Shown: positions 4,503 through 12,738, counted from the stretch's first letter. The stretch: 12,897 nucleotides of DNA from Thermoplasmata archaeon (GCA_036475875.1 JAZGAR010000236.1:1-12897), one strand, 5' to 3'. Notes: generated by a model from the letters alone, not told the origin. Translations and numbers: made by a program.

Positions 4503-5081
4503 TCATCTCTTTCTCGTGGTCTTCAACTCAGAGCCGCAGACCGGACATGAATCCTGCATCTTCTCCCAGTACCGCCCGCAGCCCTTGCATCTGTACCTCC
4601 ATTTTATGGTCTCTGTAATTCCTTTCTGGGCAATACCCTGATATTTGACCTCAAGCTCTGTTGCTAGGTTCTGGATGGAATAATCGTCTGTTAGAAGGAC
4701 AGCATCGAGCTCCTTTGCCAGGCTCAGAATCTCTATGTCGGCCTCGGTTACGCGGGCTATGTCACCTGTTTTGGAGGCACAATTTCTTACCTCGTCTAGG
4801 ATTTCCTTCGTGGGAGACATCACCTTTAATCCTGACTCGATGAGGTAGTCCAATCTCCTTCTCATCCTTCCATGTTTGAGCTCATCCAGAATTTTCGGGG
4901 AGGAGTAAAGCTCGTTGTCAGAAGATAAGTCCTTGCCTGAGAGAATCGCAGATGTATCCAACACGAATTTCATTACTTTTGGGATGGGATGGAGGGTATA
5001 TTTTGATTGCGGTTGAATGCGTGGAACAGAGTCGGTTTTCAAATCTGAATGAAACGTTTTTTTGATGTTTTCCACCATCAC
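4503..5081 (-). CDS. nob1: Archaeal Nob1-like endonuclease (PIN domain + C-terminal zinc ribbon), small-subunit rRNA 3' end maturation
   Basis: PIN N-terminus FVLDTSAI and the acidic LLTDDYSIQN, with a C-terminal ribbon CKGCG...CPVCG. The start is ambiguous. GTG 5081 or ATG 5078 overlap the upstream stop (GTGATG), whereas ATG 4973 (MKFVLDTS) gives the usual ~156-aa archaeal Nob1. Confidence 0.75.
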   Translation of the reverse strand: MMVENIKKTFHSDLKTDSVPRIQPQSKYTLHPIPKVMKFVLDTSAILSGKDLSSDNELYSSPKILDELKHGRMRRRLDYLIESGLKVMSPTKEILDEVRNCASKTGDIARVTEADIEILSLAKELDAVLLTDDYSIQNLATELEVKYQGIAQKGITETIKWRYRCKGCGRYWEKMQDSCPVCGSELKTTRKR

Positions 5082-6142
5082 AAAACAAAGAAATATAGAA
5101 TACCGGCGACAATTCCCACCACCGCAGCCGCAACCGCACCCACCTTAACCCAAGATATCGGCGCGTAGCCTTGCACCTCCCCTGTCTGCCCGTTTATCAA
5201 GAAATGATAGGTCTTGTTTTTATAATGATACGCTGCAACCCAGATTGGCAATAGAACATGCTTGTAGGTTATTTTGCCGAAGGTGGTATTAATTCTCAGG
5301 AATCGATGGGTATCGCCAGGTACATCAGCAGCACATTTGGCACGCTCATCTGCTTTAACGTTATCCTTGGCAATTTCCCAACCCTGGCGAACGTCGATCG
5401 CATATTCCTCCGCGAGCCACCCGCTCAAATACTCTGGTTTGTAGGGTACCAGCTGCTGCAAATTGAACGGGTAAATCTTGAATACCAAATGGTAGTCCAA
5501 ACCCTTTGAAGCAACGATGAGCACATCATTGTAAAAACCATCTCGGGCGCCAGAGGATGGAACCCATCTTACTTTTCTCACCTGCCTGGTTTTTGTAACC
5601 CTTTTTCCGTTTTCGTATGCGGTGTAGGTTTCTGTTACGTGGTAGTAGTAACCGCTTTCTGCGGTCCAATTAGAATGTGTATTGCAATCGTAGGTCCAGA
5701 ATGGGGTGTAAACGCCCTTTAGCAGCTCCAATCTACCGATTTTTTTGAGTTTCGAGGGTCTAAAGAAGCCTTTAGCGATCCAGGTGAAATACAATTCCTT
5801 TGCCCTGTCACGACCCACATCAAATGGTGCGAGAGTCTCCGGGCGGATGATGTCTGGATGTGCAGGTGTCTCTTTAACATACGATGAGCCACAGAATGCG
5901 CAATCACCAGCAACTTTTGCTCCAACTGAGGTTGTGGCCCCACAGTTATTGCACTAGATTGTGGTCACCTTGGTGTCCCAGCCTAATGCCGTGGGCGCTG
6001 AAAAAAAGTCATGTTCTTCGATTGCCTTATGTTCCACCTCGATAACCTTTACTGACCCGCAATAGTCGCACTCCAACTTCTGGCTTTTGGGATCGAATTC
6101 CAAGTACGCACCGCAGTTCTCGCATTCGAATTGTTTGACCAC
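5078..6142 (-). pseudogene. Double zinc-ribbon protein with conserved central domain and C-terminal TM anchor, interrupted by one in-frame TAG (5954-5956)
   Basis: The 62-aa ORF (6142-5957; ribbon 1 CENCG...CDYCG) and the 246-aa ORF share one frame. The 135 nt between them have no stop and encode ribbon 2 (CNNCGATTSVGAKVAGDCAFCGS). The only break is TAG at 5954-5956. The C-terminus is a hydrophobic helix (VGAVAAAVVGIVAGILYFFVL). GTG start at 6142. Confidence 0.6.
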
Positions 6143-6268
6143 GAGAGGTCAAATGTTGTTTGAGATTTTAAGTGTTCTTACTCGCCTTGATTCTGCCTCT
6201 TCTTACCCTTTGTGCTCCCCCCCTCAAACACATCAAAACTTAAATAAGAATCAAATCAATGACCGATC

Positions 6269-6769
6269 ATGCAAAGGCGTGTATATCCATACGGAAAATA
6301 TCTCCTTAAAGATGGTGAAGTTGGCACTGTTGGTCCAAAGCTGAAAGATTTCGTGAGCACACTCGGCTTTGATATAATTAAGTACGAAACAGAGAATGAG
6401 GAAATAGGTACCCTCATAATCGCGGTAAATAAAAAGATCGGAGAATTTCTTAAGGAAAAAACGCCCTCGGACCGCATTAAAATGATCTTAAGAGGATTTC
6501 CAGGGGTCATACCATCCTCATTTGAGCAGGATCTAGAATCGCAGCGTGTCGGCATCGAGCTGTACCTGTGGCCCAAAGAAAAGGGATCTCTACTGGAATT
6601 GTTCGTCCTACCGTACATGGAGCATTTCGACAAACAGGAGATATTTGGGATAACCGAATTCGAGGCTGAGGAGATAACAGATTGGTATTTGTGCGAACAG
6701 GTCTGGGAGCGCATTGCACCGAAGATAGAAGCTGAATTTGATGCAGAACCATTATATTGGAGGGTATAG
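6269..6769 (+). CDS. Hypothetical protein, 166 aa, acidic, no family recognised
   Basis: A clean ORF with protein-like composition. A TATA-like TTAAATAA (6240-6247) lies 21 nt upstream of the ATG, which is leaderless spacing. The long antisense ORF 6256-6885 has implausible Ser/Cys/Pro-rich composition. Confidence 0.55.
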   Translation: MQRRVYPYGKYLLKDGEVGTVGPKLKDFVSTLGFDIIKYETENEEIGTLIIAVNKKIGEFLKEKTPSDRIKMILRGFPGVIPSSFEQDLESQRVGIELYLWPKEKGSLLELFVLPYMEHFDKQEIFGITEFEAEEITDWYLCEQVWERIAPKIEAEFDAEPLYWRV

Positions 6770-6829
6770 TATGTTGGAATGCCCCCATAATGTAACAAAC
6801 AGGGAAAATCTCCCATTAGAGTTGAGAAT

Positions 6830-7045
6830 ATGAAAATTGAAGCGTGTATTTTTTGTGGTAGTAGGAATATCCGAAGTGGCACCATCAGCGATGGGGTGCT
6901 TCCGGGTTACACGGATGGGCTCAACACCTATGTATGTGATGACTGTAATCATCAAGGCTTGCCAATCATCTTCGATTCGGAACAGGAATACGATAACTTC
7001 GTTAAAGCAAGAAGAGAAGATAAACAAAGGGTGGAAGACAAATAA
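6830..7045 (+). CDS. Small zinc-ribbon protein (CxxC...CxxC), 71 aa, with a charged C-terminal tail
   Basis: CIFCGS and CDDCNH form a four-Cys ribbon. Co-oriented 60 nt downstream of the 166-aa gene. TAA stop. Confidence 0.5.
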   Translation: MKIEACIFCGSRNIRSGTISDGVLPGYTDGLNTYVCDDCNHQGLPIIFDSEQEYDNFVKARREDKQRVEDK

Positions 7046-8737: not shown

Positions 8738-8747
8738 CAAATATATA
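8738..8747 (+). promoter_or_regulatory. Putative archaeal TATA box for the UFM1-like operon
   Basis: AAATATATAA lies about 40 nt upstream of ATG 8786, with GGAGTGA (SD) 5 nt before the ATG. This implies a short leader. Confidence 0.35.
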
Positions 8748-8785
8748 ACCTCAACGCCATCATTCTTTCGAACGGGAGTGAGAAA

Positions 8786-9049
8786 ATGGTTAGAATGGAC
8801 AACAAGGTTGCACTTCGTTTTACATTTATTAGCGAGCCAGAGAAGCCTGTGGTCACTGTACAGGTTCCGAAGGATATGTTGTTTCAGGAAGCGTTGGTTC
8901 TGGCTGCAAAAAAACAGGGCAAGGATCCCAGCATTTTAAGCGCCACATATCCAGCAGGTACGCCTATTACCGGCGGAACGGTTGAAAAGGTCATTGAGCA
9001 GGGCGCCAATATACATGTCATCGACCCCTCCGTCGTGGGTTCAAGGTAA
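8786..9049 (+). CDS. ufm1: UFM1-like ubiquitin-fold modifier, pro-form (Gly85 followed by Ser-Arg)
   Basis: Aligns end to end with human UFM1 as recalled. KVALRFTFISEPEKPVVTVQVPKDMLFQEALVLAA matches [35 protein letters not shown], and the C-terminus IHVIDPSVVG-SR matches LRIIPRDRVG-SC. ATG 8795 is an alternative start. Confidence 0.8.
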   Translation: MVRMDNKVALRFTFISEPEKPVVTVQVPKDMLFQEALVLAAKKQGKDPSILSATYPAGTPITGGTVEKVIEQGANIHVIDPSVVGSR

Positions 9050-9136
9050 CTCAAGAACGAAATGGGATGAGTGTTTACCTCAGCTTTCGTTGGCACATTG
9101 ATAATTCATGCTTCTAATCTTGAGCGGGATATATAA

Positions 9137-9661
9137 TTGGCACCAAGACGTGATGCTGTGAAGCAGGAACCGGATTTATTCTATTTCTTGCAATGCTCCA
9201 CCGTGGTTTCTCCACAAGATGAGCAATGGGCTATGAGGATCAAGGAGGAGAAATACGCCCTTTTAAAATACATACAGTATGTGGATTACATGGAGAAGAG
9301 CGAGAAAGAGCAACGATGGTTCTCAATAAGACCTATTGGCGAAGATGCCATACGATGGGAGGGCACTGTAACAGCGGAAAACAGGACCTATCTCATAGAA
9401 ATAGTGCTTAAAGACTCTTATCCGTACACACCTCCCGCCGCAAGAGTGCCTGAACTTATGCGCTACACAGACAGAAAGCTAGATGACAATATCCTGGGCT
9501 TGAGAATCTGCGATATGCATATGGAGCAGAACTACTGGTGGAACGAGTACTGCAGTCTTGCCCTGTACTTGAAAAGAGAAGTATCGTACTGGCTGCAGAG
9601 CGTGATATTCCATCTGAAGCAAAAAGGTTGGTTGGAATGGACGAAAGGTATCAACGACTAG
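9137..9661 (+). CDS. ufc1: UFC1-like E2 (UFM1-conjugating enzyme homologue), catalytic Cys at 9509-9511
   Basis: Four blocks match UFC1: SPQDEQWAMRIKEEKYALLKYI vs [30 protein letters not shown]..IRWEG vs DWFRLES..TRWFG; DSYPYTPPAARVPEL vs ITYPTTAPEIAVPEL; LRICDMHM vs GKICLTDHF. There is no HPN motif; TDR sits where UFC1 has TAK. Homology extends upstream of the first ATG (9233), so the start is probably TTG 9137 or GTG 9158. Confidence 0.8.
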   Translation: MAPRRDAVKQEPDLFYFLQCSTVVSPQDEQWAMRIKEEKYALLKYIQYVDYMEKSEKEQRWFSIRPIGEDAIRWEGTVTAENRTYLIEIVLKDSYPYTPPAARVPELMRYTDRKLDDNILGLRICDMHMEQNYWWNEYCSLALYLKREVSYWLQSVIFHLKQKGWLEWTKGIND

Positions 9662-10527
9662 CCCTGTTTGAATTCGCTGATTTCTCGAAGCTTCGCAACA
9701 AGAGCGCTTTGGTTGTGGGAGTTGGGGGCCTTGGAGCAACTGTGGCAGAAATCCTCACCAGAGTGGGTATCGGAAGATTGGTGCTAATAGATTACGATAA
9801 ACTCGAAATAGCCAATATGAACAGATTGATATACAAGCCAAGCCAGGTTGGAATGTATAAGGTGGAGGCTTTGAAAGATTACCTCTTTGAAATCAGTCAA
9901 GACGTGGATATCGTGGCTTATCCCAACGACATTACCACGGGAGAGGGATATAAAATCTTTATCGAGGAGACCGAGAAAAGTGATGTGGTTTTTGGATGTG
10001 TGGATACATTTGGGGTGAGGCTTTTTATGAACGCAAAATGCGTAAAGAAGGGGAAAACGTTTATTGACGGCGGAGCGAGCCTTGACGGCATTAGAGGTAG
10101 TGTACAGGTGGTGATACCGGGCAAAACCGCCTGCTACAGATGTCATAGACATGTGTTGGGCCTGGGAAAGGAAAGACCGCAAGAACCAGATGTGGATTCG
10201 AAGGATGTCAAGGAGGATATGGAGTTCTACTTAGGGTTCGAGGAACCGGGAAAAGACAGAGAATCAGGGCTTTGCCACATAACTTCTTTGCCCACCACGA
10301 TGGCTATAATCGCTGCCCTACAGTGTCAAGAGGGTTTCAAGTATCTATTGAATTTCGGTGAGGTGGCTGGGTTTTTGATGTACAACGGCTTCAGAGGTGA
10401 GATAGAGAGGTATGACAGAGAGATAGACCCGAATTGTCCTGTATGTGGAAAGGGAAAAACCCAGTTGGACGAGAAGAAGCTCAAGGAGATAGATGAAGCT
10501 GCAAAGATGTTCGATAAGATGACCTAG
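9637..10527 (+). CDS. uba5: UBA5-like E1 (UFM1-activating enzyme homologue), adenylation domain only; catalytic Cys at 10273-10275
   Basis: VGVGGLGATVAEILTRVGIGRLVLIDYDKLEIANMNRLIY matches UBA5 [40 protein letters not shown]. Further matches are CVDTFGVR / CVDNFEAR, VIPGKTACYRC / IIPGESACFAC, GLCHITSLPTTMA / GVCAASLPTTMG and KYLLNFG / KFLLNFG. The second zinc pair is CPVC. I place the start at ATG 9637 (MDERYQRL, matching the YSRL start of the UBA5 domain). The ORF is open from 9538, but that stretch overlaps the E2 gene. Confidence 0.85.
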   Translation: MDERYQRLALFEFADFSKLRNKSALVVGVGGLGATVAEILTRVGIGRLVLIDYDKLEIANMNRLIYKPSQVGMYKVEALKDYLFEISQDVDIVAYPNDITTGEGYKIFIEETEKSDVVFGCVDTFGVRLFMNAKCVKKGKTFIDGGASLDGIRGSVQVVIPGKTACYRCHRHVLGLGKERPQEPDVDSKDVKEDMEFYLGFEEPGKDRESGLCHITSLPTTMAIIAALQCQEGFKYLLNFGEVAGFLMYNGFRGEIERYDREIDPNCPVCGKGKTQLDEKKLKEIDEAAKMFDKMT

Positions 10528-10543
10528 CTTGCGGAGTGTGATC

Positions 10544-11587
10544 ATGGTTGACCAAAACAATGTGGTGATGAAGCGCGACCTGAAAAGAGCCATAATAGAG
10601 CATGCATTGGACGGGGCGAGAAAGGATGGTTATGAAGTTCTGGGTTGGCTTACCGGCTTCTCCACAAAAGACACTGTTTACATATGCGATGCGGTCCCAT
10701 GCACCAAGTACAAGAGACAGTCTAGATACAGTGCTGAGGCTGACCCGAGCGAAGAGGCCAAGCTGGCAAGTGAGTTTCCAAGGAATGTGGGCATCGTCGG
10801 TTTATACCACTCCCATCCATTCAAGATGGATCATGAGTCAGGCGAATTCAGAAGGCTCTACGGGGTGAGTGAGCTTTTCCATAGCGGTACGGACGATGCC
10901 ATGCTGAGAAGCAGATCCAGTAGGATGAAGAACTATGTCTCTGTTGTTACAGATATAGATAACATATCCTGCTATGTAATGCACCGCAAGAAGCCCAAGA
11001 AGGTCAAGGAGAACCTGGTGAGTGACATCAATTTCAAGGATCATTTGCGGCCTATAAATTCGAAGATCCAGTTCACCATCAATAAAAGGTTCGATAAAAA
11101 ATTGGGTCTCGGTAAAATGATCAGAGCCATCGAGGAGAAGTTGTTGGAAGACATAGACAAGAAAGTGAAGGAAGACGCTGTTCGGATTCAACAGGGTCCA
11201 GTAGGCAACGTGATGCGAATACTGCCCTTCGAACGGAATCTCAACGAGAGGGCAGGCAACGCCAAAGGGAATTTTTTCCGCATAGCTCCAGAGAATGGAA
11301 AGGTAAACATCAAGGCTGTGATGAACCTCACGCCCACAATCTTCGTGCAGAAAGGCTACATCGATCTATCCTCTGCCACAGAATCCATGAAGAACGAGAT
11401 CGCCGACTACATCGTTTACCTCACATGGAACGATATCGAATACTCAGAGTTCGAGAGGCATTTGTCCTCGCAAATAAGGGAGTTGGAGGTCCATTTGGGG
11501 CGTTTAACAACAAAATACGATGAAATGAGTGGTATTCCAATGAAGATCTACACAAGGCCTAAAAGAAGGATGACCCTTAAAAAGTAG
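10544..11587 (+). CDS. JAMM/MPN+ metalloprotease with ~200-aa uncharacterised C-terminal domain (candidate pro-UFM1 processing / de-UFMylase)
   Basis: The motif elements are YEVLGWLTG (catalytic Glu), GLYHSHP (10808-10816) and HSGTDD (Ser-x-x-Asp). ATG 10544 has GGAG 8 nt upstream and lies 16 nt after the E1 stop; the TTG at 10529 is the alternative. I recognise no family for residues ~150-347. Confidence 0.75.
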   Translation: MVDQNNVVMKRDLKRAIIEHALDGARKDGYEVLGWLTGFSTKDTVYICDAVPCTKYKRQSRYSAEADPSEEAKLASEFPRNVGIVGLYHSHPFKMDHESGEFRRLYGVSELFHSGTDDAMLRSRSSRMKNYVSVVTDIDNISCYVMHRKKPKKVKENLVSDINFKDHLRPINSKIQFTINKRFDKKLGLGKMIRAIEEKLLEDIDKKVKEDAVRIQQGPVGNVMRILPFERNLNERAGNAKGNFFRIAPENGKVNIKAVMNLTPTIFVQKGYIDLSSATESMKNEIADYIVYLTWNDIEYSEFERHLSSQIRELEVHLGRLTTKYDEMSGIPMKIYTRPKRRMTLKK

Positions 11588-11589
11588 GT

Positions 11590-12738
11590 TTATGTGACCA
11601 ACCTCGCCCCGCATTTTCTACAGAACATATCTCCAGGCTCGACTTTCGTGCCGCAGCCCACGCATTTAAGCTCCTCTTTCACTGGTTTACCGCATTTTCC
11701 GCAGAAAACATCCTCGTTCTTCACCTTCGCACCGCAGTTCGGGCAGTAATTCTGTTCCTCCTCTTTTTCTTCCTCCTCCCCTTTGATTTCTTCTGGTGGA
11801 GGTGGTGGTTCGATTTTGGGTAAGATCATCCTCCCGATGCTTTCTTCATAGCATTCCCTACAGGTGGTCTCCTCTCCGCCGTTAACCTCGATACAGATAT
11901 AGGCTATTTTTCTCTCGCCGCAAATGGAGCATATCTTAAGTTCCTCAGGCTCAATATGGGCAGTTGCCAGGTCTGAAATGATCTTCTTTCCTTCTTCACC
12001 CTCTCCTGGTGCAACGCCGAAAAGTGCTTCTGCCCCCCTTTTGGAGCAAAGAGCAAGCTTGAAGGCCTCGTCATAATCTTCCTTGGCAAAGCAGGCTTTC
12101 GCCTCGGTAAGCAATCTTTGGGCTTCACTTGCATCTGAATCAGCCATCATTGCATTCTCTTTTGCTGTGCCTGCCAAGGATATTGTGAACTTCGCAGCCA
12201 GGTAATTATCTGGTTTTTTCTCGATGGTATTTGATATATCTGGGATTTCCTCATGGAATTTGAGCACTTCTTTTGGCTTTTGGTTCTCCCCCACCAAATC
12301 CACTATCTCCTTGGGGGTTGATCGTGCCTCAATATCTGAATTCGAGGACACGACCCCAAAACCCGTTTTTTTGTCCCAATCCTTCTTTGAGCTCAATAAA
12401 AGCTCTTTCGCCTCCTCTATGGTAAATTTAGCCTTCTTTTCCAATCCCTGATCGTAGTAGGTATTCGCCTTGCTTATCAAATCCTCGGCAGAACCGGTGT
12501 CAATGCCTCTTCTTTTGAGATCAGTGGCTATCCTCCTCGTAGAGTTGATGATATTGAAGATATCGTCTGAATCCGGGGTCGAGGAAATCGCCTCCAAAAC
12601 TTTCGTCTCCTTCCTTTTTTTTACTGAAGGACCCTTTCTGACCTTCAACAGAATCCTTATTCCCATCCCAATTACAAAAATTACTCCAGCTACTATAATC
12701 AAAAAAAGAACTAGGCTTTTTATTTCTTCGGCCGTCAT
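11590..12738 (-). CDS. N-terminally membrane-anchored protein with helical repeat region, Pro/Glu linker and three zinc ribbons (one CxxC...CxxC plus a double zinc ribbon)
   Basis: A TM helix (LVLFLIIVAGVIFVIGMGIRILL) is followed by KVRKGPSVKKRKETK, so the rest is predicted cytoplasmic. MIT/TPR-like helices are present (SEAQRLLTEAKACFAKEDYDEAFKLAL). Then come CSICG...CRECY, a PPPPPEEIKGEEEEKEEE linker, and CPNC-x10-CGKC-x9-CVGC-x10-CRKC. TATA-like TTTAAATA (12762-12769) lies 23 nt upstream of the ATG. Confidence 0.7.
   Translation of the reverse strand: MTAEEIKSLVLFLIIVAGVIFVIGMGIRILLKVRKGPSVKKRKETKVLEAISSTPDSDDIFNIINSTRRIATDLKRRGIDTGSAEDLISKANTYYDQGLEKKAKFTIEEAKELLLSSKKDWDKKTGFGVVSSNSDIEARSTPKEIVDLVGENQKPKEVLKFHEEIPDISNTIEKKPDNYLAAKFTISLAGTAKENAMMADSDASEAQRLLTEAKACFAKEDYDEAFKLALCSKRGAEALFGVAPGEGEEGKKIISDLATAHIEPEELKICSICGERKIAYICIEVNGGEETTCRECYEESIGRMILPKIEPPPPPEEIKGEEEEKEEEQNYCPNCGAKVKNEDVFCGKCGKPVKEELKCVGCGTKVEPGDMFCRKCGARLVT

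Follow-up and report, generated by a model that had tools for sequence, protein, structure and literature searches.

The subject of this study is a stretch of 12,897 nucleotides from a Thermoplasmata archaeon (GCA_036475875.1, JAZGAR010000236.1:1-12897; hereafter the window) and a cluster of four genes within it. Reading of the open reading frames (ORFs) places these genes contiguously and in the same direction on the plus strand at 8786-11587, where they encode a ubiquitin-like protein (Ubl), an E2-like enzyme, an E1-like enzyme and a JAMM metalloprotease (Table 1). The first three appear to be relatives of UFM1, UFC1 and UBA5, the modifier, E2 and E1 of UFMylation, which is regarded as a eukaryotic invention tied to the endoplasmic reticulum (ER) and ribosome quality control. 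The evidence presented below indicates that the locus is very probably a chromosomal, vertically maintained operon for a minimal UFM1-type conjugation cascade equipped with its own protease. A preliminary description of the same DNA had suggested such a relationship; on reading the sequence, the four co-directional plus-strand ORFs were located where it had placed them, together with the motifs it quoted and both Cys codons (9509 in the E2 and 10273 in the E1).

Table 1 Features of the four-gene cluster and its convergent neighbour (positions counted from the first nucleotide of the window)
Feature	Position	Strand	Remark
Ubl expression signals (putative)	8740-8782	+	read from sequence
UFM1-like Ubl precursor	8786-9049	+	87 aa
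Ubl-E2 spacer	9050-9157	+	Shine-Dalgarno-like GTGAT and predicted hairpin
UFC1-like E2	9158-9661	+	167 aa; 174 aa if from TTG 9137
UBA5-like E1	9637-10527	+	ATG start, 296 aa
E1 GVGGLG	9718-9735	+	sequence motif
E1 DYDKLEIANMNRL	9790-9828	+	DYDxxExxNxNR-type block
E1 Zn site CYRC	10132-10143	+	paired with CPVC
E1 catalytic loop GLC213HITSLPTTM	10267-10302	+	Cys codon 10273
E1 Zn site CPVC	10435-10446	+	paired with CYRC
E1 C-terminal helix tail LKEIDEAAKMFDKMT	10480-10524	+	15 aa
JAMM/MPN+ metalloprotease	10544-11587	+	ATG start, 347 aa
Convergent triple zinc-ribbon (DZR) protein	11590-12738	-	382 aa

The putative expression signals of the Ubl gene, a TATA-like A/T-rich AATATATAA (8740-8748) and a Shine-Dalgarno (SD)-like GGGAGTGAG (8774-8782), lie upstream of ATG 8786, within a 208-nt divergent intergenic region shared with a minus-strand V4R gene (start 8577). 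The ORF of the E2 opens at TTG 9137. An SD-like GTGAT is found at 9150-9154, 3 nt ahead of GTG 9158, and the combination of GTGAT and GTG start is kept in the window, in L001 (the corresponding locus on chromosome CP070726, see below) and in L004-L007, while the remaining spacer is unconserved and variable in length. Because of this conservation, and because the annotated L001 relative begins MKQEPDLF, the E2 start is assigned to GTG 9158 rather than to TTG 9137. Thus, the gap of 87 nt between the Ubl and E2 genes given in the preliminary description, which counts from TTG 9137, becomes 108 nt, whereas the other two spacings stand: the overlap between the E2 and E1 genes is 25 nt, the same as in L001, and the E1 and JAMM genes are 1-16 nt apart. 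The wider value applies to ATG 10544, the JAMM start of the NCBI annotation (V3U20_08055; 100% identity over 347 aa), which is preceded by GGAGTGTGATC, and the narrower value to the alternative start TTG 10529. The predicted RNA fold of 9050-9137 amounts to a raw value of -17.8 kcal/mol. The element TATATAA at 9130-9136 was considered as an internal promoter and rejected, as it is unconserved among relatives.

The order Ubl-E2-E1-JAMM and its strand are kept in 33 other loci (30 of them from species-representative genomes). They are the same in every locus long enough, down to identities of 53% for the E2 and 27% for the JAMM protein, with flanks that otherwise differ. Comparison with three relatives gave a non-synonymous divergence of 0.03-0.18 at a proportion of synonymous differences (pS) of 0.56-0.78, which is at or near saturation. 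Where computable, the ratio of non-synonymous to synonymous divergence (dN/dS) was 0.03-0.06 and, for the Ubl, about 0.03-0.05, revealing strong purifying selection. The conservation of gene order and strand across relatives, together with the low dN/dS, confirms that the operon is real, far beyond chance. Among 5.8 billion proteins, 98 homologues of the E2 were retrieved, nearly all with a precomputed PF08694 match, and the named ones stem from Thermoplasmata, Methanomassiliicoccales or "Methanobacteriota" metagenome-assembled genomes (MAGs). A scan of one genome per GTDB species provided 30 loci, all of the same kind as these homologues; it employed a single clade-specific peptide pattern, which bounds no distribution and makes no statement of absence elsewhere. 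The scanned loci include the closed chromosomes CP070739, CP070751 and CP070767, and closed chromosomes with the locus span 2-5 Mb.

The distribution bears on the idea of an anti-virus defence module analogous to Bil or to Cap2/Cap3 of CBASS, which would tag viral or host proteins upon infection. Bil shows the same four-component composition of Ubl, E1, E2 and JAMM, and the PADLOC "E1-E2" (Cap2) models match the window E1 with up to 79 bits and the E2 with 17-20 bits. Yet these weak scores are no better than that of generic MoeB and well under those of UBA5 and UFC1 (see below), the equally weak JAB match reaches 14 bits, and PHROGs gave no specific match; specific sequence affinity to the defence proteins is thus not apparent. 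Conversely, the context is chromosomal and housekeeping-like, with synteny across the 30 species-representative genomes, and searches of IMG/VR viral contigs, GenBank phages and PLSDB plasmids revealed no copy of the operon. The strong purifying selection, with Ubl sequences 60-96% identical across the clade, is also unlike the patchy, fast-evolving defence islands, so that a defence function is regarded as improbable.

The neighbouring genes encode a Nob1-like PIN_6 protein with Zn ribbon, a THUMP/UPF0020 RNA methyltransferase, TrmO, RidA, YjbQ, V4R and an epimerase, and the flanks of the window are syntenic with the closed 2.5-Mb chromosome CP070726 (L001). The host is an uncultured Thermoplasmata archaeon and not an Asgard archaeon: the NCBI taxonomy assigns Thermoplasmata to Methanobacteriati, while the Asgard phylum Promethearchaeota belongs to another kingdom. 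With flanks of archaeal housekeeping type, the locus itself is archaeal rather than eukaryotic contamination. Elsewhere, UFM1, UFC1 and UBA5 are characteristic of eukaryotes (PMC4327156, PMC10183829), which could speak for a late horizontal acquisition from a eukaryote or for a contaminated or chimeric assembly. Against this, the genes are not only intron-free but overlapping, SD-led and operonic beside those for the Nob1-like PIN protein, the THUMP methyltransferase, TrmO and V4R, and the locus occurs in closed archaeal chromosomes. Furthermore, the E2 is about 28% identical to eukaryotic UFC1 and falls into a clade of its own, and the protease is a JAMM enzyme instead of UFSP. A late eukaryotic source or a contaminated or chimeric assembly is therefore extremely improbable.

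Turning to the individual proteins, the Ubl ends in ...IDPSVVG85 followed by a two-residue Ser-Arg tail, so the UFM1-type VG-Sx C-terminus described earlier is present as VVG-SR. Across 30 sequences, the family ends at VG, either bare, as in many members, or with a tail of 1-6 aa; the Gly of this motif never varies, and the Val before it hardly does. Such an ending, VG plus 0-6 residues, is expected of a processed modifier. An AlphaFold2 (AF2) model of the Ubl with a predicted local distance difference test (pLDDT) value of 86 was compared to the PDB by Foldseek. Ranks 1-14 are UFM1 (E 1e-6 to 9e-5, query TM-score (TMq) 0.76-0.80), with a root-mean-square deviation (rmsd) of 1.2-1.7 Å in 12 of the 14 and identities of 18-25%. 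SUMO, ubiquitin and Caldiarchaeum ubiquitin rank lower at TMq 0.60-0.69, the last at position 43, and neither ThiS nor MoaD nor SAMP is found among the 50 fold matches listed. Alignment of the family profile with hhalign gave a probability of 76.8% for human UFM1, over 79 columns and end to end through VGS, versus 0.8% for ubiquitin; the UFM1 reference sequence agrees with the PDB-hit alignment. The combined data support the assignment of the Ubl as UFM1-like, by predicted fold and profile comparison rather than by a curated threshold, and to this extent the UFM1-specific affinity proposed beforehand is borne out.

For the E2, the assignment follows from direct sequence comparison. The Pfam model UFC1 (PF08694) matches with 40.3 bits over model positions 11-152 of 155, above the gathering score of 25, whereas UQ_con reaches 17.6 bits and stays under its own cutoff of 27; the best 26 PDB sequence matches are all UFC1. 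These results agree with the UFC1-specific affinity put forward in the preliminary description, and the blocks it cited (RxKEEY and YP.T.P) are seen as RIKEEKY and YPYTPPAARVPEL, in a sequence that contains no HPN motif. The codon of the putative catalytic Cys occupies 9509-9511 within RICDMHMEQNYWW, corresponding to C118 when counted from GTG 9158 and to C125 (RIC125DMHME) when counted from TTG 9137. This Cys aligns with Cys116 in GGKIC116LTDH of human UFC1 and is kept in every full-length family member aligned.

The E1 matches human UBA5 in phmmer at 1.1e-47 (166 bits), followed by MoeB (2e-20, 76 bits), ThiF (8e-18, 68 bits) and UBA7 (61 bits). Its architecture is non-canonical, comprising an adenylation domain only. 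The catalytic loop GLC213HITSLPTTM aligns with GVC250AASLPTTM of UBA5, and the motifs GxGGxG, DYDxxExxNxNR, CxxC...CPxC and GxC-x2-SLPTTM are kept in every locus with a readable region. Thus, the UBA5-type DYDK.E.ANMNRL block and the LC...SLPTTM loop noted before are present in the E1. The score for UBA5, more than twice that of MoeB or ThiF, supports a UBA5-like enzyme, as judged from pairwise scores. Two features set the E1 of the window's subclade apart from most other Thermoplasmata E1s, in which both are missing: a charged insert, roughly 20 aa long, within the crossover loop that joins the CxxC Zn knuckle to the catalytic Cys (10144-10266, E1 residues 170-210) and the C-terminal helix tail. 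The latter loosely resembles the human UFC1-binding sequence (UBS) SLEDLMAKMKNM and occurs in two subclades only; a role as UBA5-type UBS was rejected as a family feature because most relatives have no such tail.

A different chemistry could be envisioned for an E1 of the ThiF/MoeB superfamily (Pfam ThiF, 173 bits), namely that the locus is a sulfur-carrier system of the ThiS/MoaD/SAMP/Urm1 type, in which the Ubl would provide a thiocarboxylate for cofactor or tRNA thiolation instead of tagging proteins. The NCBIfam equivalog models of MoeB, ThiF and UbaA match the E1 at E-values of 1e-20 to 1e-30, the tRNA-modification gene TrmO is located 5 kb from the operon, and archaeal SAMPs serve in both sulfur transfer and tagging, as in the SAMP/UbaA system of Haloferax. 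Still, the three equivalogs remain at or below a quarter of their cutoffs (4-6 fold below; for UbaA, 89 bits versus 450), which adds to the UBA5-specific affinity of the E1, and a rhodanese domain was not found in the Pfam scan. Moreover, an E2 with conserved Cys and a JAMM protein are always co-encoded, and the Ubl fold is that of UFM1. A pure sulfur-carrier function is accordingly very improbable.

The fourth protein consists of an N-terminal MPN domain (approximately residues 1-150) with E31, H89-S-H91, S114 and D117, motif residues that are invariant in 20 relatives, and a C-terminal alpha/beta domain, conserved and about 190 aa long, for which Pfam and PDB sequence searches gave no match. 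Pfam JAB is matched with 23.1 bits (cutoff 22.5), Prok-JAB with 23.0 bits (cutoff 25), and the sole NCBIfam match is desampylase, at 36 bits versus a cutoff of 130. In a fold search with the AF2 model (pLDDT 79), the Caldiarchaeum Rpn11 homologue, Rpn11 and CSN5 matched best, aligning over about 170 columns, while the largest query coverage is that of C. elegans UfSP (5xda_D; 369 columns, TMq 0.43, rmsd 10 Å). In the window's subclade, 21 residues separate HxH from SxxD (10808-10897, JAMM residues 89-118, HSHPFKMDHESGEFRRLYGVSELFHSGTDD), compared to about 7-10 in canonical enzymes and in Asgard homologues (HSHPGEVFHSHIDD). The model is poor across this insert (pLDDT <50), and the two most divergent aligned relatives, P0194 and P0195, do not have it.

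Several observations weigh against the assignment to a UFM1-type cascade. The Ubl has no match in Pfam, Ufm1 (PF03671) included, or in NCBIfam, and searches of the PDB with phmmer and with the 30-sequence family profile returned almost solely UFM1, with non-significant E-values of 0.045-0.9. As sequence-only searches are non-significant, identification of the Ubl leans on predicted fold and hhalign; sub-threshold Pfam Ufm1 matches occur in nine of 30 relatives (best E 0.007), in which no other Ubl family is matched. The active site of the window E2, ICDMHMEQNYWW (ICDMHME), deviates from the eukaryotic context ICLxxHF(K/R)PLW, and this motif suggests a divergent UFC1 subfamily. Unlike eukaryotic UBA5, the E1 contains neither a UFM1-interacting sequence (UIS) nor the long C-terminal linker, and that of most relatives ends directly after the Zn site (CPxCG). 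Recruitment of Ubl and E2 must therefore differ from the human pathway. Finally, the Pfam families of UFL1, DDRGK1 and UFSP (peptidase C78) were not found among the ten window proteins or in the gene tables of L001 and L002.

Taking these points into account, the preferred reading is still a UFM1-type conjugation cascade with its own protease, and the data directly support component homology, conservation of catalytic residues, conservation of the operon, and purifying selection. From homology with the UFM1 pathway and with the archaeal ubiquitin and SAMP systems (PMC6043591, PMC4443979), we infer each chemical step of the following sequence; the E1 dimer, the nature of the targets and any evolutionary direction are likewise inferred. 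The 87-aa Ubl would be made with its SR tail, which the JAMM protein would remove to expose Gly85; in many relatives such trimming is unnecessary, as the Ubl is encoded ending at VG. The E1, presumably a homodimer with a structural Zn site, would adenylate Gly85 at the expense of ATP and then bind the Ubl as a thioester on Cys213 in the SLPTTM loop. From there, the Ubl would be handed to the catalytic Cys of the UFC1-like E2 and on to target lysines, either directly or with a factor from outside the operon, for which the abutting zinc-ribbon protein is a candidate. The JAMM protein would also reverse the modification.

The comparison with eukaryotic UFMylation (UFM1, UBA5, UFC1, UFL1/DDRGK1/CDK5RAP3 and UFSP1/2 with ODR4) reveals a shared core: the predicted UFM1 fold with VG and a short tail, an adenylation-only E1 with Cys in the SLPTTM loop and a 4-Cys Zn site, and a UFC1-family E2 without HPN. 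Identities to the eukaryotic proteins are about 24% for the Ubl, about 28% for the E2 and roughly 40% for the E1 core. In contrast to eukaryotes, the archaeal genes are operonic and the locus encodes no UFL1/DDRGK1 or UFSP, and the E2 motif reads ICDMHME as opposed to ICLxxHF. An MPN-fold protein tied to deconjugation is common to both, although the archaeal one is an active-type JAMM and the eukaryotic one inactive. In eukaryotic deUFMylation the inactive MPN fold is found in ODR4, the partner of UFSP2, and in the N-terminal MPN domain of C. elegans UfSP (PMC10952357).

Among archaeal systems, the ubiquitin operon of Caldiarchaeum subterraneum is likewise a compact set of Ubl, E1, E2 and JAMM genes, and the JAMM domain described here finds its closest structural counterpart in the Rpn11 homologue of that operon, CsRpn11. 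The Caldiarchaeum operon comprises ubiquitin, E1, E2, a small RING protein and the Rpn11 homologue, which matures and deconjugates (PMC3082918, PMC5654768, PMC6043591). Its components are ubiquitin-, UBC- and Uba1-like and include a RING E3, whereas the Thermoplasmata operon is UFM1/UFC1/UBA5-like and has no RING. The Haloferax SAMP/UbaA/HvJAMM1 system shares an archaeal beta-grasp modifier, a MoeB-type E1 (in Haloferax) and a JAMM desampylase. Sampylation differs in that it involves no E2 and in that SAMPs resemble MoaD or ThiS and have a GG terminus.

To place the family in a wider context, a profile of the E2 alignment was searched against 1.84 billion cluster representatives, yielding 59 proteins at E<=1e-3. 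The matches outside the family fall into two groups. The first are eukaryote-type UFC1 proteins (Pfam 200-258 bits, motif ICLxxHF), and the second are archaeal, share the motif IC[H]xHM and reach at most 32 bits against Pfam UFC1, some having no match to it. One member of the latter is named "Promethearchaeota archaeon", and others are encoded beside ESCRT-II (EAP30) or ribophorin-like genes; the group is Asgard. The gene order is E1-JAMM-Ubl-E2 in L034 and Ubl(...TVG-T)-E2-E2 in L035, L036 carries a Ubl-E2 fusion followed by the E1, and L038 shows E2 / Ubl(...DVG-LL)-JAMM-E1 / Zn-ribbon protein / E2 / JAMM adjoining two EAP30 genes. The four Asgard clusters have in common with the window a Ubl ending in (V/A)G plus tail, an E2 with IC[HD]xHM and a UBA5-like E1, as well as a JAMM protein, which is 360-460 aa long in Asgard. 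They differ in gene order and strand, E2 duplications, Ubl-E2 fusions and ESCRT-II neighbours, in lower E2 scores against Pfam UFC1 than the 40 bits of the window E2, and in JAMM C-terminal regions that are unrelated to the Thermoplasmata ones by BLAST. The E1 of L034 scores 166 bits against human UBA5, the same as the window E1, and the one Asgard Ubl searched, that of L035, gave no PDB sequence match. That the four families also cluster independently in Asgard, with different gene orders (L034, L036, L038), speaks for a functional module.

Further details of the Asgard loci are noted here. The L038 region (3990-14554 of WJIK01000029.1) also contains a Band_7 gene, one of its two JAMM proteins has N-terminal transmembrane (TM) helices, and its zinc-ribbon protein is 367 aa long with the ribbon at the end. 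This "ubiquitin-ESCRT" neighbourhood is made of UFM1-type and not ubiquitin-type enzymes. In L036, the fusion protein P0207 (1373-2206) carries a Ubl-like-looking N-terminal region ahead of the E2, with the UBA5-like E1 gene directly after. P0207, P0213, P0219 and P0241 are Asgard-type UFC1-like E2s of 258-293 aa and, from their length only, the latter three may be fusions similar to P0207.

Median pairwise BLAST values of the E2s are 44 bits and 28% identity for Thermoplasmata-eukaryote, 41 bits and 25% for Thermoplasmata-Asgard, and 30 bits and 26% for Asgard-eukaryote pairs. Compared with the sampled Asgard versions, the Thermoplasmata version stands at least as near to the eukaryotic proteins. 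Neighbour joining resolved three separate, roughly equidistant clades, and the Thermoplasmata sequences do not fall within the Asgard sample. The status of "candidate ancestor" assigned in the preliminary description is not borne out by this topology. A grouping of Thermoplasmata and eukaryote E2s upon midpoint rooting was rejected as evidence of sisterhood, as there is no reliable outgroup. Gene exchange with the eukaryotic or Asgard stem at an early date, in either direction, may have occurred.

These results differ from the published phylogenetic distribution of UFM1 and UFC1, which the operon contradicts. Grau-Bove et al. described Ufm1 as absent from Archaea and Bacteria in 2015 (PMC4327156), and Picchianti et al. 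considered UFM1, UFC1 and UFSP2 exclusively eukaryotic in 2023, with UBA5 probably of bacterial origin and UFL1 and DDRGK1 derived from Asgard (PMC10183829). More recently, Kostlbacher et al. (2026) reported UFM1 as Asgard-derived and found no other prokaryote with Ufm1, while UFC1 and UBA5 are unmentioned in the main text (PMC12962969). Work on the Asgard ubiquitin-ESCRT system assigned E1, E2 and UFL1-type E3 by InterPro families and did not call them UFM1-type (PMC9192718). In the literature searchable without subscription, UFC1 is paired with Asgard only by Picchianti et al., and Ufm1 with Thermoplasmata only in the 2010 Caldiarchaeum paper. The raw signal is publicly visible, as the MAG proteins carry precomputed Pfam UFC1 matches. 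What is new is a UFM1-type cascade that is operonic, served by a JAMM protease, found outside Asgard and, apparently, E3-less.

It follows that the catalytic core of UFMylation predates, or at least exists outside, eukaryotes and endomembranes. Tentatively, and with more doubt than conviction, one may picture the trio as a self-contained archaeal operon with an active JAMM outside Asgard, which eukaryotes inherited as a unit, swapping JAMM for UFSP and keeping an inactive MPN relic; this relic would correspond to ODR4 or, in C. elegans, to the N-terminal domain of UfSP. Inheritance as a unit opposes assembly of the trio from bacterial and Asgard parts and, if true, would imply either that genes passed long ago between Thermoplasmata and the stem of eukaryotes or of Asgard, in either direction, or that UFMylation has a wider archaeal ancestry. 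Independent of such considerations, a four-protein, intron-free and apparently E3-less system is suited for the reconstitution of UFM1-type chemistry and for the study of UIS/UBS-free E1-E2 recognition and ancestral targets.

Downstream of the operon, the convergent zinc-ribbon protein matches the Pfam families Zn_Ribbon_1, DZR and Zn_ribbon_3. In the window's subclade it contains an N-terminal TM helix and a long helical region, whereas elsewhere it is soluble and about 95-140 aa long. In 20 of the 22 other loci with a homologue, the latter lies tail-to-tail with the JAMM stop (-19 to +16 nt); the exception is the near-duplicate pair L002/L003, from one distant relative, with the gene 804 nt from the JAMM stop. 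In this sole non-abutting case, a MazE/PIN toxin-antitoxin pair (12296-12929) is located between the JAMM and zinc-ribbon genes. The protein was considered as a RING E3 and rejected, since its cysteines form sequential CxxC...CxxC ribbons and not a cross-brace. Judging from its positional conservation only, it is a possible partner of the cascade, be it as adaptor, substrate or E3 substitute.

Upstream of the operon, the block 5078-7045 comprises a Zn-ribbon gene that is interrupted and two further ORFs, one of 166 aa (6269-6769) and one of 71 aa with a Zn ribbon (6830-7045); Pfam and PHROGs gave no confident match for any of the three. The otherwise syntenic chromosome CP070726 does not carry this block between the genes for the Nob1-like PIN protein and the THUMP methyltransferase. 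The interrupted gene (5078-6142, minus strand) consists of two ORFs in one frame, one of 62 aa with a Zn ribbon (5954-6142) and one of 246 aa with a C-terminal TM helix (5078-5818), which are split by a single in-frame amber codon, TAG, at 5954-5956 (...T T I TAG C N N C G...). The product of read-through would be about 355 aa long and carry two zinc ribbons. The TAG could reflect a pseudogene, a sequencing error, or amber read-through or pyrrolysine (relatives are labelled Methanomassiliicoccales).

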